The notes under the pieces: model-generated
Databases searched by the model: none
The model's input: the letters and a program-made list of their open reading frames with translations, nothing else
What the model was told of the DNA's origin: nothing
Assembly (NCBI GenBank): GCA_965237905.1
Contig: OZ250172.1
Coordinates: forward strand, 3,008,001-3,072,000
Origin: Nitrospinaceae bacterium
Lineage (GTDB): Bacteria > Nitrospinota > Nitrospinia > Nitrospinales > Nitrospinaceae
Direction of reading: 5' to 3'
DNA length: 64,000 bases
Made by a program: the position numbers and the translations under genes
In this document: positions 1-33,610 of the stretch, in pieces
Layout of the letters: the number at the start of each line of letters is the position of its first letter
Numbering within the stretch: the stretch's first letter is position 1

Positions 1-1
1 G

Positions 2-1285
2 CATTTTTCGGAAGGCAGTTGGACTATTTTCCGTGTGTACGACAAGCCGAACAAGAATCTGAGGCCTCTGGAAGGTACCCGCGGCATTCTACCCAACAAG
101 CCGGTTTGTTCTGCTGGCGCGCCGGTGAAAAACTTCAGCGTGGTAGCGATTGACAAAGCGCTGAAGTTCAATCCGAACACTGAAGATTTCATCGAGGTGG
201 ATTTTGAGCGCAAGCTCATGCTCCACAATCCGAATGGCAAGGTGTTCGTACTGGAAAACGAGGTCAGTAAAGTAGCGGATGATAAGGTTATGCCGCATCC
301 GTTGACCTTGCATGTGAACATCGGCGACTGTGTCAAAGTAAAATTGACCAACCGTCTGAAGAAAGGCAAAACGTCCCTGCATGTGAACAACATGGCGTTT
401 GATCCCAGGGATTCCCAGGGGATCAATGTTGGGTACAACAAGGGCGATCAGACGGTTAAACCAGGTGCGTCGAAAACCTATACGTTCTTCGCGCATCCGG
501 GATTCAAGATCAACGGTGGTTTGATCTGGGATTTCGGTGATCTGGTGACCAACGTCCGCGATGGATTGTACGGCGGTATCATCATCGGTCCACGTGGTTC
601 GGTGTATCGCGATCCGGAGACCGGGAAAGACGTCTCCCTGGGCAACTCCTGGAAAGCGGATGTTATAGTTGACAAGTCTTATCCTGAAAATGCGAACCTC
701 GAGAACTATCGTGACTTCGCATTGTACTTCCAGGATGAGGATAATATTCTGGGAACGTCGTTCATGCCTTACCTGCAGAATGTGGCAGGTCTGACGGGCG
801 TGAACTATCGTCTGGAGCCGTGGACTTACCGCGAAGATGAGGGTTGTGAGCTGGGAAATATGTTCATGCCTTGTGTCGCGGCCGGATCGGACCCTGCAAC
901 GCCGGTATTGAAGGCCCATGCCGGTGACAAGGTGATGATCAACGTGTTCGGGGCTCACAACGAGCAGAACCATATGTTCAACCTGGACGGCCACCAATGG
1001 CGGCGTCATATGGACCAGAATGGTTCCGATATGATCGACGTTCAGCAGTTTGGTGCGGGTGAATATCTCCAGGCGTTTCTCAGAAGCGGTGCGGGCGGGA
1101 CGTATCACAATCCCGGCACGTACCTGTGGCTGAACGCCCGGACGCCTTATCAGCAGGCTGGCCAGTGGGGTTATTTCAAGGTCCTGCCAGCGGGCGACCG
1201 GTCCATTCTACCCTTGGGCGGTGCGACTCCGGGCAACCTGAAGTCGGCCTCCAAGCCACAGGATGAACGGCTGTCGATGAAATAA
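2..1285 (+). CDS. Large multicopper-oxidase-family protein, C-terminal part (5' end lies outside the window)
   Basis: Frame is open from base 2 (HFSEGSWTIFRVYD...). Successive cupredoxin-type repeats: 'PLTLHVNIGDCVKVKLTN', 'GLYGGIIIGP', 'PVLKAHAGDKVMINV', 'HNEQNHMFNLDGHQW', 'PGTYLW...AGQWGYFKV'. Confidence 0.8.
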   Translation, partial: HFSEGSWTIFRVYDKPNKNLRPLEGTRGILPNKPVCSAGAPVKNFSVVAIDKALKFNPNTEDFIEVDFERKLMLHNPNGKVFVLENEVSKVADDKVMPHPLTLHVNIGDCVKVKLTNRLKKGKTSLHVNNMAFDPRDSQGINVGYNKGDQTVKPGASKTYTFFAHPGFKINGGLIWDFGDLVTNVRDGLYGGIIIGPRGSVYRDPETGKDVSLGNSWKADVIVDKSYPENANLENYRDFALYFQDEDNILGTSFMPYLQNVAGLTGVNYRLEPWTYREDEGCELGNMFMPCVAAGSDPATPVLKAHAGDKVMINVFGAHNEQNHMFNLDGHQWRRHMDQNGSDMIDVQQFGAGEYLQAFLRSGAGGTYHNPGTYLWLNARTPYQQAGQWGYFKVLPAGDRSILPLGGATPGNLKSASKPQDERLSMK

Positions 1286-1325
1286 TTGAAAATAATTGTT
1301 GATCGGCAGGACTAAAATGTTTTAT

Positions 1326-1358
1326 AAGGGGCCTCTATTATAGGGGCCCCTTTGTTTT
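1326..1358 (+). terminator. Intrinsic terminator after the MCO gene
   Basis: Hairpin aaggggcctcta-tta-taggggcccctt followed by a T-rich tract. Confidence 0.75.
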
Positions 1359-1458
1359 CATTTTGGACCTTTTTGTGCTAAACTCCGGGGCTTCAAATTC
1401 AAAAAAGCGCTTGCTCTCAATCAGTTGAGTTGATTTATTTAATTTTTGTTATAAGGAG

Positions 1459-2283
1459 ATGACAGGAATGATTAGAAAAACCTTAATTGGATTATTGGTA
1501 ATCAGTGTGGCCTTGGCTTTTGGCACGGCGGCTTTCGCCAAAAAGTACAAGTATGAAGAAGGCGCCGTCAACGGTGGCGGTTCTATCAGCGGTTCGGTTT
1601 CCCTGAAGGGGAATCCTCCCCCTCCCATCATGGAAGACCTCAACAAAGGTAAAAACGTTGAGTTTTGTGTGACCCATCCGGATACCCAGAAGGGCGGAAT
1701 GCGTCCCCGTACCAAGGTTGTTGCCAAAGGCGGCAAGCTGAGCGGCGCGGTGGTATTCATCGAGAATCTCACCAAGGGCAAAGCCTGGAATTGGAAAAAC
1801 ACGAACTTCGATTTCAAAACCTGCGACATTTTCCCGAAAGTGGCTGTGGTTAAAAAGGCTTCCAAAGCGGAGAAAAAAGCCGGTGGCGTTGCGACTATCA
1901 CCAACAACGACCCGGATATTCTGCATAACCCGCATGGCTATTCCGTGGTGGGCGCCAGCCGCAAAACCCTGTTCAACAAGCCTCTGCCCAGCAAAGGCGA
2001 TGTTGCGGAAGTGAGCAAAAACCTGGCGCGGTTCAAAAAGAAGAAAGACAAACATTTCTTCCTGCAGTGCGACCAGCATAACTTCATGGAAGCCGATGCC
2101 CGCATCGTATGGAATCCTTACTTTGCCGTAACCGGCGCAGACGGATCCTTCAAAATTGCAGATATTCCTGCCGGTAAATACAAAGTCACCGCGTGGCATC
2201 CCTATGTCGGTGAAGTGACTTCGGAAGTGACTGTAGGTGGCGGCGCAGATGCGAAACAGAATTTCACGCTGACCGCCAAGTAG
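1459..2283 (+). CDS. Secreted carboxypeptidase-regulatory-like / cupredoxin-like protein
   Basis: SD aaggag; signal peptide ending AAFA; 'HNPH' and 'CDQHNFM' motifs; C-terminal 'DGSFKIADIPAGKYKVTAWHP' beta-sandwich signature. Confidence 0.8.
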   Translation: MTGMIRKTLIGLLVISVALAFGTAAFAKKYKYEEGAVNGGGSISGSVSLKGNPPPPIMEDLNKGKNVEFCVTHPDTQKGGMRPRTKVVAKGGKLSGAVVFIENLTKGKAWNWKNTNFDFKTCDIFPKVAVVKKASKAEKKAGGVATITNNDPDILHNPHGYSVVGASRKTLFNKPLPSKGDVAEVSKNLARFKKKKDKHFFLQCDQHNFMEADARIVWNPYFAVTGADGSFKIADIPAGKYKVTAWHPYVGEVTSEVTVGGGADAKQNFTLTAK

Positions 2284-2314
2284 TTTTTTAAAGTAAATTA
2301 AGAAGGAAGTTATT

Positions 2315-2346
2315 AAAACGCCGGGACTTTGGTTCCGGCGTTTTTT
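2315..2346 (+). terminator. Intrinsic terminator, possibly bidirectional
   Basis: aaaacgccggga-ctttgg-ttccggcg-tttttt. Confidence 0.75.
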
Positions 2347-2358
2347 ATTGTCCGGAGG

Positions 2359-2507
2359 TTACTTTTGGAGTTTGTTTTTGATCGCGATGACTTCTTTGAT
2401 GTGATCTCTTTCCGCCTTTTCTAATAGGAGGAGAGCGGTTTTGGCTTCGAGGTTGTCGCAGAAATCACCCAGCAGGGAATAAAACTCCGCCGAGACCATT
2501 TCCGCTT
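2359..2507 (-). pseudogene. 3' remnant of a ferritin/rubrerythrin-like gene
   Basis: Minus strand reads EAEMVSAEFYSLLGDFCDNLEAKTALLLLEKAERDHIKEVIAIKNKLQK*, an E...FY...ExxH helix pair, abruptly joined to the MCO duplicate at about 2508. Confidence 0.55.
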
Positions 2508-2865
2508 CAAGGTGATGATCAACGTGTTCGGGGCTCACAACGAGCAGAACCAGATGTTCAACCTGGACGGCCACCAATGGCGGCGGCATCTGAACCAGGA
2601 AGGTTCGGATATGATTGACGTCGAGGAATTTGGTAGTGGTGAATGAATCCAGGCGTTTCTCAGAAGCGGTGCGGGCGGGACGTATCACAATCCCGGCACG
2701 TACCTGTGGCTGAACGCCCGGACGCCTTATCAGCAGGCAGGCCAGTGGGGTTATTTCAAGGTCATGCCGCAAGGCGACCGGTCCATTCTACCCTTGGGCG
2801 GTGCGACTCCGGGCAATTTGAAGTCCGCTTCCAAGCCGCAGGATGAACGGCTGTCGATGAAATAA
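2508..2865 (+). pseudogene. Diverged duplicate of the MCO 3' end (copy of 928-1285) with an in-frame stop
   Basis: 358-nt gap-free alignment with 29 mismatches by manual count (about 92%); TAT is replaced by TGA at 2644-2646; no 5' part of the gene. Confidence 0.92.
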
Positions 2866-2897
2866 AAACTATTTCATCACTTCATCTTGAATTAAGG

Positions 2898-2931
2898 GCA
2901 AGGGAACCTTCGGGTTCCCTTGCTTTTTTTT
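2898..2931 (+). terminator. Intrinsic terminator after the MCO remnant
   Basis: gcaagggaacc-ttcg-ggttcccttgc-tttttttt: perfect stem with a UUCG loop. Confidence 0.9.
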
Positions 2932-3073
2932 GAATGACCGTTTTATCCTTGGAAGGAATTGGGGATTTCTCCAGGTATTCTGTTGATGCAACTTCAACCA
3001 TTTTAAGTTATTCTTTTCCTATAAAGTCGAGCTGTTTTCCCTCCTGTAGATCATCTTGGAAATTTCAAAAGCC

Positions 3074-4303
3074 ATGCGGAGAGCATTAGTAAATTTATTA
3101 ATTTTCTTAGTATTGTCCTGGTTCTGGGTAGTCGCTGGGGTTGACGCTTCCTCGCAGAATGAGAATATAAGCCCCCTGGCCAGTCAGGGGCGGCCCTTGT
3201 TCCTGCATTACTGTGCCGCCTGCCATGGGGTATCCGGGGATGGAGATGGATACAATGCGGAGCAGTTGGAGAAGGAACCGGCGGAGCTCTCCAATAAAAA
3301 ATTCATTGCCAAGAAGAAGGACAGCCAAATTTACCGGGTGATTAAATTCGGAGGCGAGGGGGTTAAGAAGTCACATTTAATGCCTGTATTCGGCCACACA
3401 TTGTCTGAGGAGGAGATATGGTCCTTGGTTGCGTATGTCCGGCATCTGGCCGGGGATGAGGATCACCCGGTTACCCTTCCCGATAATACTTCCAAAACCC
3501 GACCCGCAAACACACCTATATCACATGCTTCTTTGCAGGTTTTCAGGAACTGGTTTTCAAAGAAGGGCAAGGATCCATCCCTGATTGATCAGGGAGAAAA
3601 GCTATTCCGAAAAAAGAAGAGCTGTTTTGCCTGCCATCAACTGGAGGACGAAGGCGGGCTTGTGGGGCCGGATCTTTCCCGCGCGGGTTTTTCATATACC
3701 CCTGAATGGATTTTTACCTGGATCGGCAATCCACAGAGCGTCAAACCGGAATCCAAAATGCCCAACCTCGGATTGGATGATGAAGAGTGTCGGGCGATCA
3801 CGGCTTTTCTGGCCAGTCTCAAAGGCGCGGGAATCAAGAAAAAATGGGATGCTTATCTGACCCCTTCCGGTGATCCCGCCAAGGGGAAAAAACTGTTTTT
3901 CGATTCAGAAGGAAAGGCCAACTGTGGGAAATGCCATACGGTGAGTGGTCAGGGAGGCAAGGTCGGCCCTCACTTAAGCTTTGTAGGGACCAGCCGGATG
4001 AAGGCCTTTTTGTTGGAATCCATTTTGAATCCCAAGGCGGTGATCACCTCGGGATATTCTTCCATATTGATCCTGACCAAAAAGGGGAAGTTTGTTACGG
4101 GCGTGAAGATGAATGAAGATGATTCCTCGATTGACCTGATGGATAAGGAAGGAAACGCACTGCATATTTCCAAGGATGAGATTAAGAAATATAAAACTCA
4201 AAAAATTTCAATCATGCCTGGGAATTTCAAAGATATCCTCACCCAAGATGAAGTCCGCCACCTGCTGGCTTACCTGGGCACCCTCAAAATCTCCAACGAC
4301 TGA
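3074..4303 (+). CDS. Periplasmic triheme c-type cytochrome with C-terminal Pirellula/Verrucomicrobium-type heme-binding domain
   Basis: Signal peptide; three CxxCH (CAACH, CFACH, CGKCH); distal Met motifs 'HLMP', 'KMPN', 'SIMP'; 'LLESILNPKAVI'. Start could be TTG 3056. Confidence 0.88.
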   Translation: MRRALVNLLIFLVLSWFWVVAGVDASSQNENISPLASQGRPLFLHYCAACHGVSGDGDGYNAEQLEKEPAELSNKKFIAKKKDSQIYRVIKFGGEGVKKSHLMPVFGHTLSEEEIWSLVAYVRHLAGDEDHPVTLPDNTSKTRPANTPISHASLQVFRNWFSKKGKDPSLIDQGEKLFRKKKSCFACHQLEDEGGLVGPDLSRAGFSYTPEWIFTWIGNPQSVKPESKMPNLGLDDEECRAITAFLASLKGAGIKKKWDAYLTPSGDPAKGKKLFFDSEGKANCGKCHTVSGQGGKVGPHLSFVGTSRMKAFLLESILNPKAVITSGYSSILILTKKGKFVTGVKMNEDDSSIDLMDKEGNALHISKDEIKKYKTQKISIMPGNFKDILTQDEVRHLLAYLGTLKISND

Positions 4304-4324
4304 ACCCAGCCTCAAACAGTTATC

Positions 4325-6277: not shown

Positions 6278-6292
6278 GAGGACAAATTATGA

Positions 6293-7132
6293 TTAATGGA
6301 TACTTCCCGGAACCCGGGCATCCTTTTTGATCCGTCCGGATTTGATAGTTTCATAAAAGGGGCGGATGACTTTATCTCCATCGAACTCAAAGTCCAGATT
6401 AATCGTTTCGCCTTCGGAAACTTTGATTTTTTTGGATTGCTTTTTCATCAGATAATGCCAGGCGTTGACTTTGTATTCTCCGGGAGGGATATTGTCGATT
6501 TTATAATTGCCGTCGACCTGGGTTTGATAGTAATAAGGATTTTGGACCCGGTAGCCCCAGGTTTGCATAAACTCGTGCATTCCGCAGATCATCTGAAAAA
6601 CTTTATAGTGTTTTTGGAACTTTACTTTGCCATCGGATATCTCTTCGGCGGGGATGGGGATGTTCAGGATGATTTTGCCCCGCTCACTTTGGTAAACCTG
6701 GCTGTTGTGCATGACCGCATCCTGGTTGTCTACAAAGAACGTTCCTCCCTGCGGGATGACGTTGACTTCCGGCAGGAATTTGCAATTTTCGGAGAGAATA
6801 TTGATCGGCTTATTAGGGAAGGACTTACCGGCATCCACGTGTTGCAGGGTAATCACGACGTCTTTCATGCCTCGTTGCTCATCCGTGATGAAATCAAAGA
6901 GGAGACGGTTCATTTCGTCGTCCGTATCCACTTCGGCGCACATGTCGAGGTTGGGGTACAAAACGAGATGAAACACCCGAGGCGGTGGAGTTTTCCCCTT
7001 CATAGTAGCTTTTCCCTGCAGGGTTCCCCCATTTTTAACTTCAATCTCCTGATAGGCCCAAACCTGTGTGCTTAGGATGCACGCGGATAAGAAAGTCAGG
7101 GCTAATTGGATAAACAGTTTGGGCTTTTTCAT
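6293..7132 (-). CDS. Secreted carboxypeptidase-regulatory-like / cupredoxin-like protein
   Basis: Signal peptide; 'MHNSQ' and 'CGMHEFM'; 'DGNYKIDNIPPGEYKVNAWH'. Confidence 0.8.
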   Translation of the reverse strand: MKKPKLFIQLALTFLSACILSTQVWAYQEIEVKNGGTLQGKATMKGKTPPPRVFHLVLYPNLDMCAEVDTDDEMNRLLFDFITDEQRGMKDVVITLQHVDAGKSFPNKPINILSENCKFLPEVNVIPQGGTFFVDNQDAVMHNSQVYQSERGKIILNIPIPAEEISDGKVKFQKHYKVFQMICGMHEFMQTWGYRVQNPYYYQTQVDGNYKIDNIPPGEYKVNAWHYLMKKQSKKIKVSEGETINLDFEFDGDKVIRPFYETIKSGRIKKDARVPGSIH

Positions 7133-7187
7133 GTTATTTGCTCCCTAATCTATAAAACTCTGTCACCTTTAAGAGTGGTACGTCTAT

Positions 7188-7919
7188 CTATTTTTGAGAT
7201 ACCTGAGTCGCCAGTTCTGTGAAATTGAAATTTACCTGCGTCACGTTTTTCCCGATCTCTATTTTCCGCGATTCCTCACCCAGCGACTCGTGCCATACTT
7301 TTAGTATGTATTTCCCCGGTGGCACGTCTTTGATCTCGAAGGCGCCGTCGCTTTGGGTCATTGCGAAATAGGAATGGGGCGTAACCACAATGTAGGCCTC
7401 CATCCAGCCATGAAGATCGCAGGAAACTTTGACGACCTCGGGCTCCTCCATCTCCTGAGTATAATCCTGATTCGGTAAAAACATGATATTAATTGGATCG
7501 TTGTCAAAGGAGTAGGTGTGAATATTGTGGTTGATCGGATCACTGGTCAAAATTTTCAGTTCAGAGCCCTGGGGCATGGCCAGAATATGAGGAGAATAAG
7601 CACATTTCTTCTGGTCGATCGTATAGCTTCCCGGCTTACTTTTTAATTTTTTAGCTTGTTTTCCTTCCAGCCAAACCACCACATTCTTAACTTTTTGATT
7701 TTCAAGGATTAACGACTCTGCCAGAATTTCAGGCCCACACACCTTTTGATATTTTCCCGTTTTGTGTGTGACTGGGGCCGGAACTTTTCCCGAGTATTGG
7801 ATCTCCCCCTTGATGGTCCCCGCATGGATCGGAGAGGCCACAAGCAGAAGCGAAAATGTAGCAAAAATTAGTTTAAACATCTTAAGAATTGAAAGGTTTA
7901 GAGATTTCAGCGGAATCAT
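7188..7919 (-). CDS. Secreted carboxypeptidase-regulatory-like / cupredoxin-like protein
   Basis: Signal peptide; 'NHNIH' and 'CDLHGWM'; 'DGAFEIKDVPPGKYILKVWH'. True start may be slightly downstream (MFKLIF). Confidence 0.8.
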   Translation of the reverse strand: MIPLKSLNLSILKMFKLIFATFSLLLVASPIHAGTIKGEIQYSGKVPAPVTHKTGKYQKVCGPEILAESLILENQKVKNVVVWLEGKQAKKLKSKPGSYTIDQKKCAYSPHILAMPQGSELKILTSDPINHNIHTYSFDNDPINIMFLPNQDYTQEMEEPEVVKVSCDLHGWMEAYIVVTPHSYFAMTQSDGAFEIKDVPPGKYILKVWHESLGEESRKIEIGKNVTQVNFNFTELATQVSQK

Positions 7920-8185
7920 ATATCAAACCGGTTCCAAGTTCAAGTGAGACTTAAGCTGTTAAAATACCCTCTTCAACCTGTGATCTCTACCCTTATTAAA
8001 CAGGTTTAAATAACTTTATAGTAGCCCTCCCTGGTGAATTCCCGATTAACGGGACATGAAAAAAGGTTAATCAATCGATCGGCATATTTAGCTTTCCAAA
8101 CCTATCCGCCTATTTTAAAATAAGCGAGACTTACCATCTTGTAGACCTCAAAAATTGAGGTTTTATTCCCCAAAAGAGGCCCAGA

Positions 8186-8671
8186 ATGAAAAAAATCATC
8201 CCTATTCTCCTGATCGCTATTTTTTTGACTCACCCAGCTTGGGCCGCCGGCCCGAAGGCGGGAGATTCCGCCCCTGATTTCTCTTTAAATGCCATCACCG
8301 GGGGACAACATACCTTGAGCGATTTAAAGGGCAAAGTGATTCTGGTGGGCATGTTTCATATTTGCGTGCCTTGTATGAATCAGGCCATGGAATTCGAAAA
8401 AGTCCGAAAGGCGTTGAACACTGATAAACTGGTTATCCTGGGAATCAATACCAGTGGTGATTCTAAAAAAGCGGTACAGGATTACCTTGCGGGATTTCCC
8501 AAGCCGGTGCATTTCCCATACTTGCTGGATCCCAGCCAGACCGTTCACAAGGCTTATACCCAAAGGGATATGCCCACTGTTTTGATTATCGATTCTAAAG
8601 GGGTCCTCAGGGCCCGAAGTCCTTCGGTCGGAGCCGATCAGCTGGTTCCCTATCTCCAAAAATTACTCTAG
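8186..8671 (+). CDS. TlpA/ResA-like periplasmic thioredoxin (redoxin family)
   Basis: Signal peptide; 'GDSAPDFSL', 'LSDLKGKV', CxxC (CVPC), cis-Pro loop 'MPTVLIID'. Confidence 0.88.
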   Translation: MKKIIPILLIAIFLTHPAWAAGPKAGDSAPDFSLNAITGGQHTLSDLKGKVILVGMFHICVPCMNQAMEFEKVRKALNTDKLVILGINTSGDSKKAVQDYLAGFPKPVHFPYLLDPSQTVHKAYTQRDMPTVLIIDSKGVLRARSPSVGADQLVPYLQKLL

Positions 8672-8764
8672 GCATCATCCCCAAGCCGTTAAAGAAGTAC
8701 AGGGAACGCGGTTTAGAATGCCGTATTCCCTTTTGTCCTTGCCAAAGTTTTTCTTCGGGAATCC

Positions 8765-15520: not shown

Positions 15521-15552
15521 TGAACTCAATTAATTTACGTTAAGGGGTATTT

Positions 15553-19317: not shown

Positions 19318-19411
19318 TCCTTTCTTTTCATTTCTCTATTCTCAGCCCCCCACTTGGTTTAAATTTTTTTATAAATACAGATATTGATCTTTTGGATAAT
19401 TGATTAGACCC

Positions 19412-21076: not shown

Positions 21077-21226
21077 GGCATATCCGCCCTTTACCGGATT
21101 TTCCCGGCCCTCTTGACCCCTCAAAAAAAATCTTATAAACTATTGAAAAATTGTGTATAATTTCATTATCAATTTTTCTCTCTGTTGTTTCGAGAGGTCA
21201 CATTTGATTTCAAGTCGGGTGAAGCC

Positions 21227-22030: not shown

Positions 22031-22074
22031 CCTGTTTAAATTATAAAGAGAGTTATTCGATCGTAAGGGAAGGG

Positions 22075-23469
22075 TCAGAAGGGCTTCAAATCCCCGATGT
22101 AGCGTTCTGAATTATCGAAGTGTTGTAGAACTTCCACCGGATCGTCGATCCGGGGCCCGCCGTAAAAATTTTCGTTGCTGTCATACCAGGTGTTGAACCG
22201 GTACCCCTCGGTGTCGTCGTGGTAGAGTTTCCGCCGCGCGTCCTCCCCCTTGAAGGTAAAATCCAACTGCGCAGTTTTTCCGGCTTCAATGGTGACGGTC
22301 CCTGTTTGTATGGGTACGAAAGGGTGCCAGGCAGTCACTTCGTAGGTGCCGGGCGGGATGTTTTCGATATTGAAGTTTCCTTCGGCGTCGCTGATCACAA
22401 AGTAGGGGTTGTCGACGATATAGCCCCGGGTCTGGAGGAAAGGATGCAGGTTGCATTTCAGAATGAACTCTGGCGCGCCGGGTTTGATGAAAGCGGAACG
22501 GACCTGCGAATTGACCGGTAATACGCTTTTGTTGCTGGTCTGGTTCCGGTGCGCTCCGTAGATTTCATAGGTGGCGATTTCGTGTTTGATGGGATCCGTA
22601 TTTTCAATCAGGATATCCTCCCCGTTCTTGATGCCGATCACGTATTTGTTCACGTGACACAGTTTGAGATGCAGGGTTTGCATTTTGCGCGGGAAGGGTT
22701 TTCCTTTTTCGATCCCCTGGATGGCAATGATTGCGTCCTGGAGTCCGCCTTTCTTAGAGACGGTAAAATCGTACAAAATCCGGTGGCCCTTGCCGTCCGA
22801 CATGCGCGAGCAGAATTCGATATTGGGTGCGTGGATTAAATGGAACGCTCGCGCCTTGGGCACCAGGCCAGCCAGATTGACGCGACCCGCCAGTGTTCCT
22901 CCCTGATCGACCGATGTGATTTTGTAATCGAGCGGAATCTGGTCATGGAGTTGCTTTGCCAGCTTGTAATTTCTCTTGTACAGTTTATCGACCTGTTTCC
23001 GCGCCTTTTCGTCCCGGCCCAACTGATGGTAAATCAGTCCCAGATCGTAATCCGCATGGACCATGCGTGAATCTTTTTGGAGAGCCATTTCGATTTCCTG
23101 AGCGGCGTCTTCCAGAAAGTTGAGTTTGGCGAGAGACAGGCCGCGGAAATACCGGAAGTTGGCATTGTCATAACCCATCTCCAGCGCTTTCTGGAAGGCG
23201 AGGAGGGCCTCCTTGTGGCGGTTGACCCGGCTGAGGGCCACTCCCAGATTGGCCTGCGCTATGGAATTGTCGGGTTTTTCCTGCAAGGCCTTTTCGAATT
23301 CGAGAATGGCTCCATTCCAATCTCCCTTTTGGCTTAAAACTTTGGCCTTGTGGAGAGCCTCTTCGGATGTCCCGGCCAAGGAGAGTGCAGTGGCGCTTAT
23401 CGCAAACCATACAGCCCAAAAAACAAGGGCCAAGGTACCGCATTGGGTTTTCCTATAAGAAATGCGCAT
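22075..23469 (-). CDS. TPR protein fused to a carboxypeptidase-regulatory-like / cupredoxin-like domain
   Basis: Signal peptide; TPR repeats ('AQANLGVAL', 'ADYDLGLIY'); 'KHEI' and 'CNLHPFL'; 'GNFNIENIPPGTYEVTAWHP'. Confidence 0.82.
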   Translation of the reverse strand: MRISYRKTQCGTLALVFWAVWFAISATALSLAGTSEEALHKAKVLSQKGDWNGAILEFEKALQEKPDNSIAQANLGVALSRVNRHKEALLAFQKALEMGYDNANFRYFRGLSLAKLNFLEDAAQEIEMALQKDSRMVHADYDLGLIYHQLGRDEKARKQVDKLYKRNYKLAKQLHDQIPLDYKITSVDQGGTLAGRVNLAGLVPKARAFHLIHAPNIEFCSRMSDGKGHRILYDFTVSKKGGLQDAIIAIQGIEKGKPFPRKMQTLHLKLCHVNKYVIGIKNGEDILIENTDPIKHEIATYEIYGAHRNQTSNKSVLPVNSQVRSAFIKPGAPEFILKCNLHPFLQTRGYIVDNPYFVISDAEGNFNIENIPPGTYEVTAWHPFVPIQTGTVTIEAGKTAQLDFTFKGEDARRKLYHDDTEGYRFNTWYDSNENFYGGPRIDDPVEVLQHFDNSERYIGDLKPF

Positions 23470-23707
23470 ACAATTTAAATTCCCTGTTGAACGATGAGGT
23501 CAATCTATCAAGTAGGACCAGACCCGTCAAGGACCTTTAAAATACTGACGAGCAACCCTTTTTATTACCCAATGACCCAAAAATTCGAGTAACCTATAAT
23601 ACATCGAATCACTCTCTCTATAGATACGCTGGATGGACTATTTATTTCAATCCCTGGCGTTTTAAGCTTCATTCTTTAAACCCTAAGGCGGGGTTAGCCT
23701 CGACCGA

Positions 23708-24697: not shown

Positions 24698-24747
24698 ATA
24701 GTCTTAAAGCCCCAAATACCTGTCCACTATTCTTGAGAGTCAATTCT

Positions 24748-26439: not shown

Positions 26440-26479
26440 AAGTCTTGGGAATTTCGCCATTCTTTGATATAAAAAAGAG

Positions 26480-27775
26480 ATGATGGAGTTATTCCCGGAA
26501 TATGAAAAACCAACCGATGGGCCCCCGCCTCCCCTGGCCGACCGCATGCGGCCTGAATCCTGGGAAGACCTGCTCGGCCATGAACACCTGATTGGCGAAA
26601 AAAGCCCGCTCCGCCGGTTGATCGAAAAGGATGCCGGACTGTCTTTTATTTTATGGGGACCGCCGGGAGCCGGCAAAACCACCATCGCCCGCATCGTGGC
26701 CCGCATCACCCAAAGCGAGTTTCATGAAATCAGTGCCGTGAATGCCGGTGTCGCGGACATCCGGAAAATCATCGAACGTGCCAAAGGCAGTTGGGCGCAA
26801 TCCAAACGCCGCACGGTTCTGTTCATCGACGAAATTCACCGCTTCAACAAGTCCCAGCAGGACGCCGTTCTGCCTTATGTCGAGAACGGAACCATCCGCC
26901 TGATCGGTTCCACCACCGAAAATCCTTCGTTTGAAGTCATCCCCGCATTGCGTTCCCGGTGCCAGGTGTTCCGTTTGGGATACCTCACCGCCGATCAAAT
27001 TCGCCACATCATTGAACGGGCTTTACAGGACGAAGTTCGCGGCTTGGGGGGTATCCCGGTTACTTTTGATGAGGCGGCGGTGGATTTGATCATCAGCCAT
27101 GCCAATGGCGATGCGCGCCGTGCGTTGAATGTGTTGGAAGCCGCGGTGATGTATCAGAAGGAACGCAATGCAGAACTACCCCCGCCGGTGTCGGCGGCGC
27201 CGGTGGGACAGTCGGTGATTGAGGGCATCATCCAACGGACGGCCGTTTTGTACGACAAGGATGGGACCGAGCATTACGATCACGCGTCCGCTTTTCAGAA
27301 AAGTATGCGGGGGTCGGATGCCGACGCCGCCGTTTACTGGCTGGCCAAGATGATCGCCGGCGGCGAAGACCCAAGATTCATCGCCCGCCGCCTGGTCGTC
27401 ACGGCGGCAGAGGATGTGGGGCTGGCCGATCCCATGGCACTGGTGCTCGCCAATGCGGCCTTCGATGTGGTGGAACGTATCGGCTTGCCCGAAGCGAGAA
27501 TCCCACTGGCGCAGGCGGTCATCTATGTCGCGCGGGCGCCGAAAGACAATACCGCCATCAAAGCCATCGACTCGGCTTTGAGCGACGTTGAGAAAAAAGG
27601 CCAGTCGTTTCCCGTCCCTAACCACCTCAGGGATGCCCATTATAAAGACGCCAAAAAATACGGCTACGGCACCGACTACAAATATCCCCATAATTATCCC
27701 GGTCACACAGTGGAACAGGAATACCTTCCCGCCGAACTGAAAGGCAAAAAATATGTGCCCCGTGACGATAAATAA
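26480..27775 (+). CDS. rarA: Replication-associated recombination protein A (MgsA)
   Basis: 'PLADRMRP', 'LWGPPGAGKTT', 'FIDEIHRFNKSQQD', 'SAFQKSMRGSD', 'YKYPHNYP'. Confidence 0.96.
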   Translation: MMELFPEYEKPTDGPPPPLADRMRPESWEDLLGHEHLIGEKSPLRRLIEKDAGLSFILWGPPGAGKTTIARIVARITQSEFHEISAVNAGVADIRKIIERAKGSWAQSKRRTVLFIDEIHRFNKSQQDAVLPYVENGTIRLIGSTTENPSFEVIPALRSRCQVFRLGYLTADQIRHIIERALQDEVRGLGGIPVTFDEAAVDLIISHANGDARRALNVLEAAVMYQKERNAELPPPVSAAPVGQSVIEGIIQRTAVLYDKDGTEHYDHASAFQKSMRGSDADAAVYWLAKMIAGGEDPRFIARRLVVTAAEDVGLADPMALVLANAAFDVVERIGLPEARIPLAQAVIYVARAPKDNTAIKAIDSALSDVEKKGQSFPVPNHLRDAHYKDAKKYGYGTDYKYPHNYPGHTVEQEYLPAELKGKKYVPRDDK

Positions 27776-27819
27776 TTGATAGTGACCGGAAACGCCTTTT
27801 GCCAGTCGCACCTCGGAGC

Positions 27820-28365
27820 TTAACCATCTGATTTGAGCTGATCATTCGCAAGCCTCCGAGCTGAATCAATCTGCTCTTCTGTCATGTGGGCTTCGAGTCT
27901 TGGGATAGCGCCAGCAGCCTGCAAAAAGCCCTGAGCATTCGCAAGGACAAGCCACATATACGCCTCAACAATCCTACTCTCTTGTTCTTCCAACGGGCGG
28001 TTATCTTGACCAGCCATGAAGTCACCCGCCAGAATAGCGCAGAGAGCATATCGAGCTTGATCTATTCCCTGCTCTGCGGCCTTTCTATACCATTCTTCTG
28101 CGGCTTGATCGTCTGGTGCTACCAAACCGCTACCTGTCTCGTAACATACCCCGAGATTATATTGTGCAACCGCGTTGCCGCGCTTTGCTGCCTCACTAAA
28201 AATCTTAAGTGCGGTGGAAAGGTTTCCATCGTCAAAGGCAACAAATGCTTCTTCCAATCCGTGTTCCTCTATCAGATTATTTCTTACCACATGGTATGGA
28301 TTCGTGAGCGAGCCAAATATTTGGGCCAGCCAGTAGGTAAATTTTCTGCGGAGTTTTAGAAACAT
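27820..28365 (-). CDS. Sel1-repeat protein
   Basis: 'GNAVAQYNLGVCYETGSG', 'WYRKAAEQG', 'EAYMWLVLA'. Start uncertain; the ORF is open to 28500. Confidence 0.82.
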   Translation of the reverse strand: MFLKLRRKFTYWLAQIFGSLTNPYHVVRNNLIEEHGLEEAFVAFDDGNLSTALKIFSEAAKRGNAVAQYNLGVCYETGSGLVAPDDQAAEEWYRKAAEQGIDQARYALCAILAGDFMAGQDNRPLEEQESRIVEAYMWLVLANAQGFLQAAGAIPRLEAHMTEEQIDSARRLANDQLKSDG

Positions 28366-28610
28366 AGATTTCTGCCTTAAAAAATAAAGGGCTGATTTAT
28401 CTTTTTTCGTAACATCACGAGATAAAATATAAATGGTTAGCCTAAACCATACCAAAGAATTGACATTTTCGGCAAGCTGAAATAGAGTGAGTCTATCCAA
28501 ATATCCATAATAGGAGGGCTTACCGTGAAAAGGTTAATCCGTGTTCTTGCTGTTCCGCTTTTGCGCAAGCAACATTATCAACAGATTGATAAAGTGAAGG
28601 GAGAAAGCAA

Positions 28611-28928
28611 ATGGCTGATGACCAGATACTAAGCCAAGAAATAATTGTAAAATCAAATTTGGGTCAGGTACTGAAGATTTGGTGGTGGTTGACTTGGAGA
28701 CTGTTTTTAACTTTATTGGCTATTGTGTTTGTAATGTCATTTATTGGAACGACGTTGTTTCGTTTGTACCAACTTGATTACCAAAATGCCATCAGCACTT
28801 ATGGTGGAGGTTTGTTGTTTCACCTAAGTGCCTTCTATTTTGTAAGGCAATTATTTACTCGTGGAAAGTTTAAAGATTTCTCAATTGTATTGGTAGCGAC
28901 CAAGCGCAAGCCTGAAGAATTGATCTAG
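28611..28928 (+). CDS. Small hypothetical membrane protein (AT-rich)
   Basis: SD ggag; two hydrophobic segments. Confidence 0.65.
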   Translation: MADDQILSQEIIVKSNLGQVLKIWWWLTWRLFLTLLAIVFVMSFIGTTLFRLYQLDYQNAISTYGGGLLFHLSAFYFVRQLFTRGKFKDFSIVLVATKRKPEELI

Positions 28929-29104
28929 AATGTTTATAGAGTCTTCAAGACCATGAATTATGACCCTTTTCATTCCCCTACAGATGCTTAAAATGCTTCT
29001 GGAACATGACGCTGATTCAGCTGCAACTTAAGTCCCACCGTAAATAAAAGTATTACTCCAAAAGATGGAAGATAATTGATACAATTCCCCGTTTCGGAAC
29101 CTTC

Positions 29105-29180
29105 CAAGTTAAAGAAAATTGAAAATGGCGCAGAGAACACAATTTACGGACGTTGAATCCATTTTTGAGGGCCGCCTGCG
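29105..29180 (+). repeat. Direct repeat copy 1: truncated 5' end of the LRR gene (pairs with 29886-29961)
   Basis: 72/76 identical by manual count; encodes MAQRTQFTDVESIFEGRLR then diverges to a stop. Confidence 0.93.
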
Positions 29181-29192
29181 GGAAACCCAGCA

Positions 29193-29221
29193 TTGACAAG
29201 TGACAATTTACGCTTTACAAC
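29193..29221 (+). promoter_or_regulatory. Putative sigma70 promoter of higBA (leaderless transcript)
   Basis: TTGACA-17 nt-TACAAC, 6 nt upstream of the higB ATG; no SD sequence. Confidence 0.6.
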
Positions 29222-29227
29222 TGAAGA

Positions 29228-29506
29228 ATGATAACGGGTTTTAAGGATCGAAGGCTTAAACGTTTCTACGAAACAGGAGCGCGGGGGAAAATACAGCCCA
29301 AGCTTCTCGACCGCGTAGAATTTATCCTTTCTCTTTTAGATGTAGCAGAAACTCTGGAGGATATAAATGTTCATAGCCTTCATTTGCACCCGCTCAAAGG
29401 AGATAAAAAAGGAATTTGGAGCGTAACAGTCAGAGCCAATTGGCGGATACTATTCCGCTTTGAAAATGGAAAAGCTTCTGACGTTGAAATGACCGACTAT
29501 CATTAA
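29228..29506 (+). CDS. higB: HigB toxin (RelE/ParE superfamily)
   Basis: 'MITGFKDRRLKRFY', 'LHPLKGDKKGIWSVTVRANWRILFRF', C-terminal 'DYH'. Confidence 0.95.
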   Translation: MITGFKDRRLKRFYETGARGKIQPKLLDRVEFILSLLDVAETLEDINVHSLHLHPLKGDKKGIWSVTVRANWRILFRFENGKASDVEMTDYH

Positions 29507-29532
29507 GAGGAATTAAGTAAGGAGTTATTACA

Positions 29533-29838
29533 ATGCCTATGAAAAAACCACAGCACCCAGGAAAAGCAATCCGCATTTCTTGTTTGGAGCCAAATAATCT
29601 AACGGTTACAGAAGGGGCTAAGATTTTGGGCGTGACCCGCCAGAACTTGAATAATATCGTCAACGGGAAAAGTGCTGTTTCTCCAGAAATGGCCATTCGG
29701 GTTGCGAAGGCTTTTGGCGGAACCCCAGACGCATGGTACAGAATGCAATCCGCTTATGCCATTGCCCAGGCCAAGAAAAAAGCTGGAAAAATAAAAGTTA
29801 AAACCTATAAATCCGAAAATATGCAGGTTGGAGTTTGA
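29533..29838 (+). CDS. higA: HigA antitoxin (HTH-XRE)
   Basis: 'HPG', 'AKILGVTRQNL..IVNGK..VSPEMAIR..KAFG....W..MQ'. Confidence 0.95.
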   Translation: MPMKKPQHPGKAIRISCLEPNNLTVTEGAKILGVTRQNLNNIVNGKSAVSPEMAIRVAKAFGGTPDAWYRMQSAYAIAQAKKKAGKIKVKTYKSENMQVGV

Positions 29839-29885
29839 AAGTTATTGACTTGACGGTATATGTTCGCTCTATCCGCACACCCATT

Positions 29886-29961
29886 CAAGTTAAAGAAAAT
29901 TGAACATGGCGCAGAGAACACAATTCACGGACGTTGAATCTATTTTTGAGGGCCGTCTGCG
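29886..29961 (+). repeat. Direct repeat copy 2 (leader and start of the intact LRR gene)
   Basis: Matches 29105-29180. Confidence 0.93.
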
Positions 29962-30394
29962 CGGCAATCAGGCCATGTTGAGCGGCCTCGGGCTGACTCC
30001 GGAAGAAGCCCGGCTCCTGTGGCAGGCTCCGCGACTACAAGAGGTGAGCTGGCTGGATCTGGATGACAATTGTCTGGGCGATGCGGGACTCGGGGAATTG
30101 ACGGAGTGCGAACATCTGGAGAATATTCAATATCTCAACCTCAATAAAAATGGAGTGACCGATGCGGGCCTCCAAAAACTCGCGCAGTCGAAGTGCCTGC
30201 CCAAACTGAAACGCCTGCACCTGAAACACAACCCCATCGAAGGACCCGGCGTTATCGCTTTGTTCGAATCGCAAACGCTGGACGGTCTCACCACGTTTCA
30301 GGTCAACGAGGGATGGACCTGCAAAAAGCGCGAGGGTTGGCGTTACAATCCCCAGCTCCGCTCCGCGAGGTCCGATTATGGACGGGGCGAATAA
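29906..30394 (+). CDS. Leucine-rich-repeat protein (RI-like)
   Basis: Repeats 'WLDLDDNCLGDAG', 'YLNLNKNGVTDAG', 'RLHLKHNPIEGPG'. Confidence 0.85.
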   Translation: MAQRTQFTDVESIFEGRLRGNQAMLSGLGLTPEEARLLWQAPRLQEVSWLDLDDNCLGDAGLGELTECEHLENIQYLNLNKNGVTDAGLQKLAQSKCLPKLKRLHLKHNPIEGPGVIALFESQTLDGLTTFQVNEGWTCKKREGWRYNPQLRSARSDYGRGE

Positions 30395-30630
30395 AGCCCC
30401 CTCTTTTTAAAGAGGGCGGGGGGTGATTTAGCTCCCCTTACAGAGGGGAGGACCAGCGTGACGCTGGACCCAAACTGGGCAAGGCCCGGATCTAATTTTC
30501 TCCTCTCCCCTCACAGGAAGCACCTACGGGGTGACGGGCAGGGTGAGGGGCGGTTTTGAATAGGGTCTACAAATGAAGTATTTTATAATTCCCCCTCACC
30601 TTAATCCTCTCCCCCTGGGGAGAGGAGATA
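30394..30630. repeat. Cluster of REP-like GC palindromes
   Basis: cccctcttt-tt-aaagagggcggggggtgattt; ctcccct...aggggag; tctcctctcccc...gggtgaggggcg; and an inverted relative ccccctcaccttaatcctctccccctggggagaggaga. Confidence 0.6.
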
Positions 30631-30704
30631 TCAAGCGCGTCATCCTGATGCTTGAATCGCTGACTTATGCAAAGCTCTCCTTGGTAAGAAGGAACTCCTG
30701 ATTT

Positions 30705-31931
30705 ATGACTTCTCCTCAATCCACCGAACAAATCCATATTCATATTTCCGGCTCGGACCGGCCCGGTATCCTCGCTGAAGCCCTGGAAGCGATTGTGCGC
30801 CACGAATGCCTGGTGGTCGATATCAAGCAGTTCGTTTTTAATGGGATGCTGAACCTGTCCATTTTGCTGGAGAGTAAAAACTCGCAGGCTTTGGCGGATC
30901 TCCGGGGTTCCCTGAATACTTATGGGGCGCAGACTGGCATGAAAGTCGTTGCGCATCCCTGGGATTCCGAGCATCGTCCCGAAGCGCCTTACAAACACCG
31001 TTTGGTCGTCACCATCCTGGGGCAAACGCTCGGTCCCGTTCTATTGCAGGAACTCACCCGCACCCTGGCGGACCTGGATATCAATATTGTGCGCATCGAG
31101 CAGTTGGATTACGGGGATCATCACGTGCTGGAAATTGTGATCGGAGCCCGGCAGGTGATGACCAATGTCGATATTCTGACCGCCCTCCTGCACTTCAAGG
31201 AGCATTTCGATGTGGATATTGCCGTACAGGAGGACACGTTGTTCCGCCGCAACAAGCGGTTGATCGTGTTGGACGCCGATATGACCTTCCTGCAATGCGA
31301 AGTGATCGATGAGATGGGCAAACTGGCGGGGGTGGGGGAGCAGTTGGCGGGCATTACTGAAAAGGTCGTGCATGGCGACATCGACTTCACCATCGCTCTC
31401 AAACAACGGGTAGCACTGTTGAAGGGGCTGGCGGTTTCTCAACTCGAACAACTTTACGAGAACCTGCCGCTGACTCCTGGCGCGGAGGAGTTGGTTCGCA
31501 TTCTGCAACACCTGAATTACAAAATCGCCATCGTCAGCGGCGGGTTTGAGTTCTTCATTTCTAAGCTTGTGGAAAAGTACCAGCTGGATTACGGTTTTGC
31601 CAACCAGTTGCAGATTCAGGAGGGCAAAGTCACCGGTGAGGTGGAAGGAGAAATCATCGACGCGCAGTCCAAGGAAAAGATTCTTGTCTCCCTGGCCGAA
31701 CGGGAAGGGTTTTCCCTGCAACAGGTCGTGGCCGTGGGGGATGGCGCCAACGACATCCACATGCTGGCCAGGGCCGGACTGGGGATCGCCTTCAACGCCA
31801 AACCCATTGTCCAGCAACACGCCCAGGCTTCTATCAGTATCTACAATCTCGAATTAATTCTTTATTTTTTAGGTATTTCAGGTAAAGAACTTAATGAGTT
31901 ACGTAAGGCTATGGAGAAGCCGGGCTCGTAA
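30705..31931 (+). CDS. serB: Phosphoserine phosphatase with ACT domains
   Basis: 'GSDRPGI' ACT start; HAD motifs 'DADMT', 'VSGGF', 'GDGAND', 'AFNAKP'. Confidence 0.95.
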   Translation: MTSPQSTEQIHIHISGSDRPGILAEALEAIVRHECLVVDIKQFVFNGMLNLSILLESKNSQALADLRGSLNTYGAQTGMKVVAHPWDSEHRPEAPYKHRLVVTILGQTLGPVLLQELTRTLADLDINIVRIEQLDYGDHHVLEIVIGARQVMTNVDILTALLHFKEHFDVDIAVQEDTLFRRNKRLIVLDADMTFLQCEVIDEMGKLAGVGEQLAGITEKVVHGDIDFTIALKQRVALLKGLAVSQLEQLYENLPLTPGAEELVRILQHLNYKIAIVSGGFEFFISKLVEKYQLDYGFANQLQIQEGKVTGEVEGEIIDAQSKEKILVSLAEREGFSLQQVVAVGDGANDIHMLARAGLGIAFNAKPIVQQHAQASISIYNLELILYFLGISGKELNELRKAMEKPGS

Positions 31932-31956
31932 CAGTTTCCCGTTTCAGCTCCCATCC
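31872..31956 (+). repeat. Direct repeat copy 1 of the serB / dehydrogenase convergent junction (pairs with 33526-33610)
   Basis: 71/85 identical, gap-free, by manual count. Confidence 0.9.
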
Positions 31957-32039
31957 CCAGCGGCAATTTTCTCGTCAAATACCTCATTACATGCGATCAT
32001 TTTAGGGTACCCATCTGACTCTAAAAAAAGGATTTCCTA

Positions 32040-32774
32040 ATGAAAAGCTCCACCAAGACCAAACTTAACTTGCTTGCTACCTTGTCGTTGACCGTGTGGG
32101 TTTTGCTTATGGCGATGCCAGCCGCTGCCGGGTCGCTTGAGGATGCTGCCCAAGCCTACCAGTCCGGAGATTACAAAAAAGCGTTTAAACTTTTCCAACC
32201 ACTTGCCCGGAAGGGCAATGCGGTTGCCCAATATAACTTGGGAGCCATGTATGACAAGGGTCAGGGAATTGCCCAGAATTATACAGAGGCAATCAAGTGG
32301 TATCGCAAAGCCGCCGACCAAGGTGATATTGAGGCTCAATACAACATGGGTGGGATGTATCAAGTGGGTGTAGGGATCGAGAAGGATTTTAAAGAAGCGA
32401 TCAAGTGGTACCGTAAAGCTGCGGATCAGGGTTTGGCTGAGGCCCAATACAATGTGGGATTTATGTATTACCAGGGCCAGGGGGTCTCCCGGGATTACGT
32501 CACCGCCGCAAAGTGGTACGGCAAGGCCGCCGATCAGGGTTTGGTCCAAGCTCAATTTAATGTGGGATTGATGTATGACCAGGGCCAGGGGGTTTCCAAG
32601 GACCTTGTGCAGGCTTACCAATGGTTCAGTCTTGCCGCTTCCCGTATGCCGTCAGGACCCTCTCGGGATAAGGTTAACAATTATCTGAATACCCTCCGCA
32701 AAAAAATGGCTCCCGCCCAGGTGGGCCAAGCTGAGAAACTCGTTAGGGAGTGGAAACCCAACCGTGGGCATTAA
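32040..32774 (+). CDS. Secreted Sel1-repeat protein
   Basis: Signal peptide; about four 36-aa repeats 'AQYNLG.MY..GQG...WYRKAADQG'. Confidence 0.93.
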   Translation: MKSSTKTKLNLLATLSLTVWVLLMAMPAAAGSLEDAAQAYQSGDYKKAFKLFQPLARKGNAVAQYNLGAMYDKGQGIAQNYTEAIKWYRKAADQGDIEAQYNMGGMYQVGVGIEKDFKEAIKWYRKAADQGLAEAQYNVGFMYYQGQGVSRDYVTAAKWYGKAADQGLVQAQFNVGLMYDQGQGVSKDLVQAYQWFSLAASRMPSGPSRDKVNNYLNTLRKKMAPAQVGQAEKLVREWKPNRGH

Positions 32775-33516
32775 AAGAAAGAAACAGATATTCCGACCGA
32801 TGCGATCCAGTCTTTTTTCGCTGTGGATAGTCTTGTTCGTTCTGGGACTGGCGGTGCCGGCCGTTGCCGATTCATTTGACGATGCTTCCGAGGTCTACCG
32901 ATCCGGCAATTACAAAAAAGCATTTGAGCTTTTCAAGGCTCTTGCCGATCAAGGTTCAGCGAAAGCCCAATATAACTTGGGGGTTTTTTATGAAGAAGGG
33001 AAAGTGGTTCCCAGGGATTACGCCAAGGCAGTGCAGTGGTACCGCAAGGCCGCCGACCAGGGTTATGCCCCGGCCCAACTCAACCTGGGGCTTATGTATG
33101 ACCAGGGCCAGGGTGTTTCTCAGGATTACACCACTGCCGTAAAGTGGTATCGTAAGGCCGCCGATCAGGGTTATCCTCAGGCCCAATACAGTCTGGCTGC
33201 AATGTATCAATCGGGTGACGGGGTTGCGAAGGATTTCAAAAAAACACTTGAGTGGTACCACAAAGCCGCCGACCAGGGTTATGCCGAGGCTCAATACAAC
33301 CTGGGGCTTCTGTATGCACAAGGCGAGGTAATTCGTCAGGATGTTTTCCTGGCTTACAAATGGCTGAGCCTTTCAGTTACTGGATTGCCCCCCGGGAGTG
33401 TTCAGGATGAAACCAAAAAGCTGTTGGAAGTATTCAGAGAAGTTCTCCCCCCTACCGATTTGGCCCAGGCCGAAAACCTTGTCAGGGAATGGAATGCACA
33501 ACATAAAAAGAAGTGA
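32764..33516 (+). CDS. Secreted Sel1-repeat protein (paralog of the preceding gene)
   Basis: Same repeat architecture; start may be ATG 32800. Confidence 0.92.
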   Translation: MGIKRKKQIFRPMRSSLFSLWIVLFVLGLAVPAVADSFDDASEVYRSGNYKKAFELFKALADQGSAKAQYNLGVFYEEGKVVPRDYAKAVQWYRKAADQGYAPAQLNLGLMYDQGQGVSQDYTTAVKWYRKAADQGYPQAQYSLAAMYQSGDGVAKDFKKTLEWYHKAADQGYAEAQYNLGLLYAQGEVIRQDVFLAYKWLSLSVTGLPPGSVQDETKKLLEVFREVLPPTDLAQAENLVREWNAQHKKK

Positions 33517-33525
33517 AAAGTTGAG

Positions 33526-33610
33526 GGTATTTCAGGAAAAGAACTTAAAGAGTTACGTAAAGCTATAGAACGACCGGGCTCGAAAAGATTTCCCGCTTCA
33601 GTTCCCATCC
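33526..33610 (+). repeat. Direct repeat copy 2: serB 3' remnant overlapping the true 3' end of the dehydrogenase gene
   Basis: Reads GISGKELKELRKAIERPGS versus SerB GISGKELNELRKAMEKPGS. Confidence 0.9.

Follow-up and report, generated by a model that had tools for sequence, protein, structure and literature searches.

Small groups of accessory genes have probably been added beside ordinary protein-coding genes of a Nitrospinaceae bacterium by a recombination in which incoming DNA of a related species, paired with a host gene, had its other end joined illegitimately inside the end of that same gene. The evidence comes from a window of 64,000 nucleotides (positions 3,008,001-3,072,000) of a single-contig genome of 3.09 Mb (contig OZ250172.1 of assembly GCA_965237905.1, here called G000), in which three pairs of diverged direct repeats coincide with gene ends: at the 3' end of a multicopper oxidase gene (case 1), at the start of an LRR gene (case 2), and at the junction of a serB-like gene with a dehydrogenase gene (case 3). 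It is for cases 2 and 3, and for some 30 similar pairs elsewhere in the genome, that we favor this origin; case 1 is the stump of a deleted paralog. A live gene end with a dead copy beyond the intervening genes (the cargo) is called a scar below, and the dead copy a stump. Positions follow the numbering of the window unless marked as genome positions; G001, G002, and so on denote the genomes of relatives, which are metagenome-assembled. Genes were named by Pfam, and gene calls came from our own hexamer model, not from annotation.

A sequence-only reading of the window had reported the three pairs as gap-free and 84-95% identical, and recomputation upheld both coordinates and identities: 329 of 358 positions agree in case 1 (928-1285/2508-2865; 91.9%), 72 of 76 in case 2 (29105-29180/29886-29961; 94.7%, four differences), and 71 of 85 in case 3 (31872-31956/33526-33610; 83.5%), where the alignment can be extended to 92 nt. 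Most of the gene identities that it proposed were likewise recovered, as Pfam finds a multicopper oxidase, HigB, HTH_3 (HigA), LRR_6, ACT plus HAD domains (serB-like), two Sel1 genes, and a saccharopine dehydrogenase in the window; its "cupredoxin-like" gene, however, encodes a CarboxypepD_reg domain, and what it called a "ferritin-like remnant" belongs to a rubrerythrin gene, of which it is the 3' end.

The repeats of cases 2 and 3 are not assembly artefacts. Single contigs from X14 and X15, short-read runs of one sample that is possibly the source of the assembly, cover 27500-30387 and 30607-35500 with no differences and at flat depth. Diverged versions of the left joints are found in two independent marine runs, in an X2 contig for case 2 (29061-29842, 46 differences) and an X1 contig for case 3 (31788-32118, 13 differences). 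The contig at case 1 (1207-2537) also has no differences and extends only 30 letters past the joint. A chimera of mixed strains, the danger foreseen by the sequence-only reading, could draw on the metagenomic origin of the relatives' assemblies and on the resemblance of the copies to alleles from different species. Nevertheless, the spanning contigs led us to reject it for cases 2 and 3; unrelated samples share joints, the same cargo lies at the same sites in G004 and G009, and we hold this explanation of the repeats to be exceedingly improbable. The idea that the repeats would permit excision or amplification of the cargo found no support: no excised, amplified, or empty form occurs among the 15 of 26 joints listed for the matching runs, although contigs drop rare variants.

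Comparison with relatives indicates that case 2 is a true insertion. Its parts, in order, are as follows.

29105-29180, forward strand: dead copy, with the ribosome-binding region and first 19 codons of the LRR gene; contiguous with native upstream DNA and likely the recipient's old start.
29173-29183, forward strand: illegitimate joint, where LRR and cassette DNA agree at 9 of 11 GC-rich bases (the upstream DNA of the cassette being taken from G004).
29228-29506, forward strand: higB toxin gene, cargo (Pfam).
29533-29838, forward strand: higA antitoxin gene, cargo (Pfam).
29886-29961, forward strand: live copy, the start of the LRR gene; the joint is at the identical place in G004.
29906-30394, forward strand: LRR gene, the intact anchor (Pfam LRR_6).

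Six of the seven congeners that cover this site have a single LRR start and hence an empty site. Between G004 and G000 the higBA region is 91-99% identical and serB only 75-90%, a difference that points to a recent transfer between species. The two genomes share the joint of higA with the LRR gene, but of the dead LRR start G000 has 76 nt, and G004 about 210 nt. The stumps go with their hosts: over its first 58 coding bases the G000 stump is 95% like G002 and 78% like the stump of G004. The two copies in G004 were also compared at 25 sites that separate G007 from G009. They agree at 14 and are uninformative at 3, and at all 8 informative sites the stump has the state of G007, the nearest kin of G004 by serB, and the live start that of G009. 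These sites flank an identical block on both sides, and the middle block is 98% identical between the copies.

The slot at 27776-29104, which separates the LRR gene from the gene at 26480-27775, is itself hypervariable: it is empty in G010 and holds different genes in G001, G002, G008, G004, and G009. In G004 it contains a second, older direct repeat of 60 nt, and the slot acts like a stacked array; one of the X2 contigs passes over 27781-29905 altogether. Between the LRR gene and serB, 30358-30700 is a mosaic of short dispersed palindromic repeats, parts of which have 38 other matches in the genome. This block, which is absent here from most congeners and breaks short-read contigs, presumably consists of elements like miniature inverted-repeat transposable elements or repetitive extragenic palindromes.

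Case 3 is also a true insertion when set against its relatives, with the following parts.

30705-31931, forward strand: serB-like ACT/HAD phosphatase gene, intact (Pfam).
31872-31963, forward strand: copy 1, the live serB end with a dead dehydrogenase end; weak likeness continues for about 20 nt.
32040-32774, forward strand: Sel1-repeat gene 1, cargo (Pfam).
32764-33516, forward strand: Sel1-repeat gene 2, cargo (Pfam); in G009 this joint is likewise where a Sel1 gene ends, one whose C-terminus is similar.
33526-33617, forward strand: copy 2, a dead serB tail with the live dehydrogenase end.
33563-34747, reverse strand: saccharopine-dehydrogenase-family gene, intact (Pfam).

Because serB and the dehydrogenase gene overlap tail to tail, each copy includes one live and one dead end. 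The overlap occurs once, without cargo, in seven of eight congeners. G009 has one Sel1 gene at the site and the same right joint, but its dead dehydrogenase end is 143 nt long versus 92 nt in G000; the Sel1 cargo of G009 is split into two short open reading frames (ORFs), suggesting a frameshift. The live dehydrogenase end of G000 is 98% like that of G001 over one 60-nt window and 67-95% elsewhere in the gene, which gives a hint of a foreign tract.

In case 1, by contrast with these insertions, most of a tandem multicopper-oxidase paralog has been deleted, and nothing was gained.

1-1285, forward strand: 3' part of oxidase paralog A, intact at about 1,620-1,630 aa, with its start about 3.6 kb ahead of the window; repeat copy 1 occupies 928-1285.
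1459-2283, forward strand: CarboxypepD_reg-domain gene (Pfam), a native neighbor of the oxidase in relatives and not acquired cargo.
2359-2508, reverse strand: 3' remnant of a rubrerythrin gene of 167 aa, cut by the deletion; the family was read on the intact copy in G002.
2508-2865, forward strand: 3' stump of oxidase paralog B, with B-type residues, a W codon changed to TGA, and a B-type terminator.

The gene order in G002 is oxidase A (1,632 aa), the CarboxypepD gene, rubrerythrin, a sigma-70 factor, oxidase B, and cytochrome c, and this two-paralog layout is present in four of the six loci examined (G002, G010, G001, G011). The contig of G008 has only oxidase B, the locus being cut by the contig end, and in G020, which belongs to another genus, a single oxidase gene precedes the same CarboxypepD gene. 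The window corresponds to G002 until 2508, inside the rubrerythrin gene; the match resumes 6,064 nt farther on in G002, at the final 358 nt of B, with one shared base at the joint, so that about 6.06 kb has been lost. The stump has B-type residues (HLNQ, VEEFG, and the W codon that is now TGA), while the live oxidase is nearer to paralog A of G002 than to B in 15 of 15 windows. The two-paralog relatives and the B-type stump rule out an insertion, and no empty site was found among the six relatives' loci. The earlier proposal of homology-anchored gain from relatives' diverged alleles is the best fit to cases 2 and 3 as well as to the genome at large, but it is wrong here, where the supposed cargo is native. 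In the relatives the tails of A and B are 91-97% identical (97% in G011), which is consistent with gene conversion. Case 1 is also a caution, for paralog deletions can imitate the signature of a scar. Many Nitrospinales have two such paralogs of about 1,630 aa, 6.6-8 kb apart and with homogenized 3' ends; the lineage of G000 has lost one of these giant copper oxidases together with a rubrerythrin and a sigma-70 factor. Similar secreted-looking proteins are encoded near cytochrome c genes at 1459-2283, 6293-7132, 7188-7919, and 22075-23469, and 2152-2199 and 6455-6502 form a 48-nt inverted match.

Comparison of the genome with itself (35-600 nt, at least 78% identity) bore out the expectation that such repeats are commoner than chance: at distances of 0.3-3 kb there are 66 direct pairs versus 3 inverted ones, while beyond 50 kb the figures are 417 and 367. 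Scars were then counted by a rule-based scan in 20-kb chunks for repeats of 40-650 nt, at least 77% identical and less than 6 kb apart, in which one copy lay at a called gene's end and its partner outside genes. Over 3.08 Mb of G000 this gave 33 direct and 2 inverted gene-end pairs; since the 33 take in case 1, plus at least two doubtful pairs, and lack case 3 and a site at glyQ, about 30 is a fair count. Adding case 3 and glyQ brings the set to 35, with medians of 81 nt for the repeat and 1,177 nt for the cargo; 27 pairs lie at 3' ends and 8 at 5' ends. These 35 pairs display no replication polarity (19 have the live copy first, 15 the stump, and 1 is unscored). The same scan of 0.4 Mb in each of three other genomes, where 4.3 pairs would be expected at the rate of G000, found none in the congener G008, two in G020, and three (plus one inverted) in G024; over 0.44 Mb of Escherichia coli K-12 it found none. 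The density is high compared with E. coli and, as far as such small samples go, ordinary for Nitrospinales; an excess peculiar to this lineage finds no support. Relatives of the LRR protein occur in 44 genome contigs, all titled Nitrospinota, Nitrospinales, Nitrospinaceae, or Nitrospina, and the 44 loci show 2 scars, at the sites of cases 2 and 3, in genomes that may already have been counted.

At 13 of 14 further sites compared with relatives both copies correspond to one copy, the exception being genome position 1,561,573, which has no clear single-copy counterpart there. Clean empty sites were seen at genome positions 32,945 (5 of 5), 1,097,622 (9 of 10 loci), and 2,490,288 (3 of 4) and at glyQ in G002; the other compared sites are compound, stacked slots. 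The first of these is probably the youngest clean event: at genome positions 33,180-33,554 a gene with a Tsi3-like immunity domain of the type VI secretion system (T6SS) stands between two 115-nt copies of an ABC-transporter promoter and start, 96.5% identical, and the site is empty in five of five congeners. In G002 (C77:36500-39968) the slot that in G000 holds AbiEii contains G002's own stumps of both flanking genes, with repeats of 71 and 38 nt that are 97% identical. Self-comparison also brought out long genes with internal repeats and multi-copy module arrays, at genome positions of about 993,000-1,002,500, 2,585,000-2,596,000, 2,888,000-2,893,000, and 241,900-248,300. Seventeen of the 21 cargo ORFs scanned have a Pfam match (TPR, Fic, AbiEii, Tsi3-like, MBOAT, HDOD, peptidases, and others), and none of the 21 belongs to a recombinase or transposase family, in keeping with the earlier observation that no integrase or transposase accompanies the repeats.

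The two copies of a scar have diverged as working alleles of different species do. We pooled 16 coding segments at 15 sites, leaving out case 1, site 1,561,573, and sites without fetched relatives. Between live and dead copies there are 0.53 synonymous substitutions per synonymous site (dS) and 0.071 nonsynonymous ones per nonsynonymous site (dN), a dN/dS of 0.13, and live copies differ from their G002 or G008 orthologs to much the same extent (dS 0.45, dN 0.054, dN/dS 0.12). Nonsynonymous changes make up 61 of 162, whereas duplication in place predicts 63-66% (P about 1e-10, with sites treated as independent). In 26 segments 140 of 229 differences fall at third positions, and 569 codons include 3 stops and 6 gapped codons; the left-gene segment of site 1,097,622 yielded no codons. 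We therefore reject duplication in place for the pooled set; followed by neutral decay it would predict a dN/dS of at least 0.5, and only near-identical pairs stand aside from this verdict. The dN/dS of 0.18 between relatives and stumps suggests slight decay since death.

The direction of replacement was judged with the help of relatives that have the same cargo at the same gene and no stump, the arrangement expected of a donor. Three sites have such relatives: G010 at glyQ, G008 and G001 at a radical-SAM gene, and G002, G005, and G001 (and G007, where the anchor gene is unaligned) at genome position 613,928. At glyQ the live end, its TGA stop, and the DNA downstream resemble cargo-bearing G010, and the stump, its TAA stop, and its terminator resemble the empty G002, G008, and G001; the live end would thus have arrived with the cargo, and the stump would be the resident's.

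The events that we propose would begin in a congener that already has accessory genes beside a conserved gene, X. A fragment with X and these genes would enter the cell, probably by natural transformation, and RecA would pair it with the resident DNA within X; the free end, consisting of the donor's X end and the cargo, would then be joined, with little or no homology, to a point within the X end of the recipient, a process known as homology-facilitated illegitimate recombination (HFIR). X would remain whole, with a donor end and the cargo next to it, and the dead copy would be the recipient's former end, pushed out together with its terminator and neighbors. Selection would retain only events that leave X intact, so that joints would cluster at gene ends, and the islet could later spread by ordinary double crossover. 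The geometry of HFIR should yield this additive product whenever the donor has its own copy of the gene end. One homologous side and a variable joint are what G000 shows against both G004 and G009, one joint being shared and the other different. Both comEC and dprA are intact in G000, and they were found in 9 of 11 and 20 of 21 genomes, respectively.

Several points tell against this proposal. Both comEC and dprA score in the E. coli control too and are therefore no proof of competence. In the laboratory HFIR usually removes roughly as much DNA as it adds, and a single crossover of recircularized DNA was the source of duplications of 109-950 bp in E. coli (PMC3240628). A live and a dead end in each copy means that case 3 requires two illegitimate joints, and hence two events or a circle. 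The shorter case 2 stump of G000 could be the later trimming of a longer one. Clear microhomology was seen at the case 2 joint alone (9 of 11, where 3-10 bp is the benchmark for most HFIR cases), three other donor-type joints being too diverged to judge, and the true donors are unsampled. At most sites the stump trails the live copy by a few points in likeness to all relatives; this reveals decay without identifying the native copy, and polarizing by overall identity to relatives proved uninformative.

The main rival, a somewhat unlikely one in our estimation, is that a donor gene end and cargo were end-joined into a small circle, which RecA integrated by a Campbell-type single crossover that duplicated the gene end. 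The resulting map is identical to that of HFIR, case 3 would take one step, the 98% identical middle block of the G004 copies would be accounted for, and circles of this kind have been seen in E. coli conjugation (with the duplications just mentioned; PMC3240628) and proposed for the displacement of rhs tips (PMC2935791). However, the crossover would have to fall, at most sites, inside just 44-145 nt of 79-97% identity. A circle should also leave donor sequence in the joint-side stump, where the G004 stump is G007-like (at two adjacent sites only), and at glyQ donor-type states reach beyond the repeat, 60-130 nt upstream, where they hold 3 of the final 4 informative sites as against 5 of 28 earlier ones, a weak signal. 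The patterns in G004 and at glyQ lean toward a linear substrate, on few sites. It is improbable that foreign DNA was instead patched into a break or fork by two staggered illegitimate joints, with the target duplicated in place and the copies diverging later. Such insertions, the literal form of an "insertion with long target duplication", are on record for restriction-modification genes that lack any other mobile element (PMC2853133), the copies at 32,945 are 96.5% identical and share genome-specific bases, those of case 2 have just four differences, and the first donor arrangement could have originated in this way. But the codon measures (0.13 where at least 0.5 is predicted, and the excess at third positions) disfavor it at most sites, the donor-type relatives and the polarity at glyQ are left unexplained, and its rescue would need a later recombinational replacement of both copies.

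It is more improbable still that a site-specific integrase or dedicated capture machine acting in trans put cassettes at gene ends. The genome does have five tyrosine-recombinase genes, and higBA, AbiEii, Fic, and the Tsi3-like gene are cargo of a mobile type; but the distance to the nearest tyrosine-recombinase gene is 231-262 kb for the three cases and 259-262 kb for cases 2 and 3 alone, some 30 unrelated target genes are used at both 5' and 3' ends, repeat length varies at one locus, the copies are diverged, and no recombinase or transposase is encoded in the 21 cargo ORFs (serine recombinases and transposases were not searched for genome-wide). No common target motif was seen. An own or adjacent recombinase and a conserved att core or attC sites, the hallmarks of integrons and islands, are lacking, with no dedicated attC scan having been made. 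Nor do the scars look like insertion sequences or transposons: the repeats of 76-92 nt are diverged, no flanking inverted repeats occur among those listed, and the cargo has no transposase family.

The scars belong to a known kind and are not a new mobile element. They share their structure with the insertions with long target duplication of Furuta, Abe and Kobayashi (2010; PMC2853133; see also Nobusato et al. 2000, cited in PMC4978471), which have genome-unique direct repeats of more than 30 bp and of variable length around inserts of less than 20 kb, an empty site in a relative, no other mobile element, and in some cases an overlap of the repeats with gene 3' ends. Here repeats of 76 and 92 nt enclose 0.7 and 1.56 kb, respectively, relatives have empty sites for cases 2 and 3 and not for case 1, and the targets are protein-gene ends, with no integrase, transposase, or tRNA target. 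Most published cases are in naturally competent species. Their cargo, however, was restriction-modification genes (by the search filter), for which breakage by the enzyme was proposed, while ours comprises higBA, Sel1, TPR, Fic, AbiEii, MBOAT, and others; without restriction-modification cargo, it is the structure and not the mobile restriction-modification form that is shared. Moreover, the copies tabulated there are mostly 93-100% identical, whereas these are alleles from different species (dS 0.53), with about 10 scars per Mb at ordinary genes.

HFIR in Streptococcus pneumoniae, Acinetobacter baylyi, and Pseudomonas stutzeri (PMC3240628, PMC2884548) likewise combines one homologous anchor with one nonhomologous joint of variable position, has short or no microhomology, and uses no recombinase. 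Unlike the present events, in which the donor brings its own gene end, the outcome is additive, and an end is stranded, the laboratory process deletes about 1 kb of recipient DNA and leaves no repeat. The C-terminal displacement of rhs genes (PMC2935791) and the T6SS effector-immunity arrays of Vibrio cholerae (PMC5361080) are close parallels, in that an incoming end takes over the live gene and the old end is shunted downstream, leaving a direct repeat of variable length whose copies come from other lineages and not from duplication; PMC11751169 offers another parallel for the working of displacement. Those, however, are toxin loci in which the swapped tip is the payload, while here housekeeping genes (glyQ, serB, an ABC transporter) serve as anchors, 5' ends take part as well, and the protein is barely changed. 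A 2025 study (PMC12359135) describes small integrase-free gains beside persistent genes and attributes one-flank cases in passing to illegitimate recombination, but its accessible text does not use stranded gene ends as a marker and has no match for "duplicat". Elsewhere, 10-18% of variable segments were repeat-flanked, mostly by less than 30 bp (PMC2884548), and toxin-antitoxin islets have been suggested to spread by recombination at flanking core genes (PMC13617665). A literature search that covered few subscription papers and no supplements found neither a genome-wide survey of stranded gene ends nor, for Nitrospina, Nitrospinaceae, or Nitrospinota, a report of this pattern, also with regard to multicopper oxidase duplication in Nitrospinota.

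These observations address the question of how accessory genes first land beside core genes without an integrase, HFIR having been thought rare. Because scars keep the gene ends of both donor and recipient, they offer an assay that needs only the genome and gives density per Mb, donor distance (dS about 0.5, that is, across species), and direction. Toxin-antitoxin, Fic, AbiEii, and Sel1 genes would move in this manner among species of marine nitrite oxidizers without a mobile element of their own. The odds seem to us even that terminus displacement is a general and under-counted additive route of gene gain, by which, at roughly one gene in a hundred of this nitrite oxidizer's genome, an allele of another species has supplanted the start or end and accessory genes have been added alongside, and that stranded ends can serve to count, polarize, and date, from one genome, the natural occurrence of an HFIR so far measured mainly in the laboratory.

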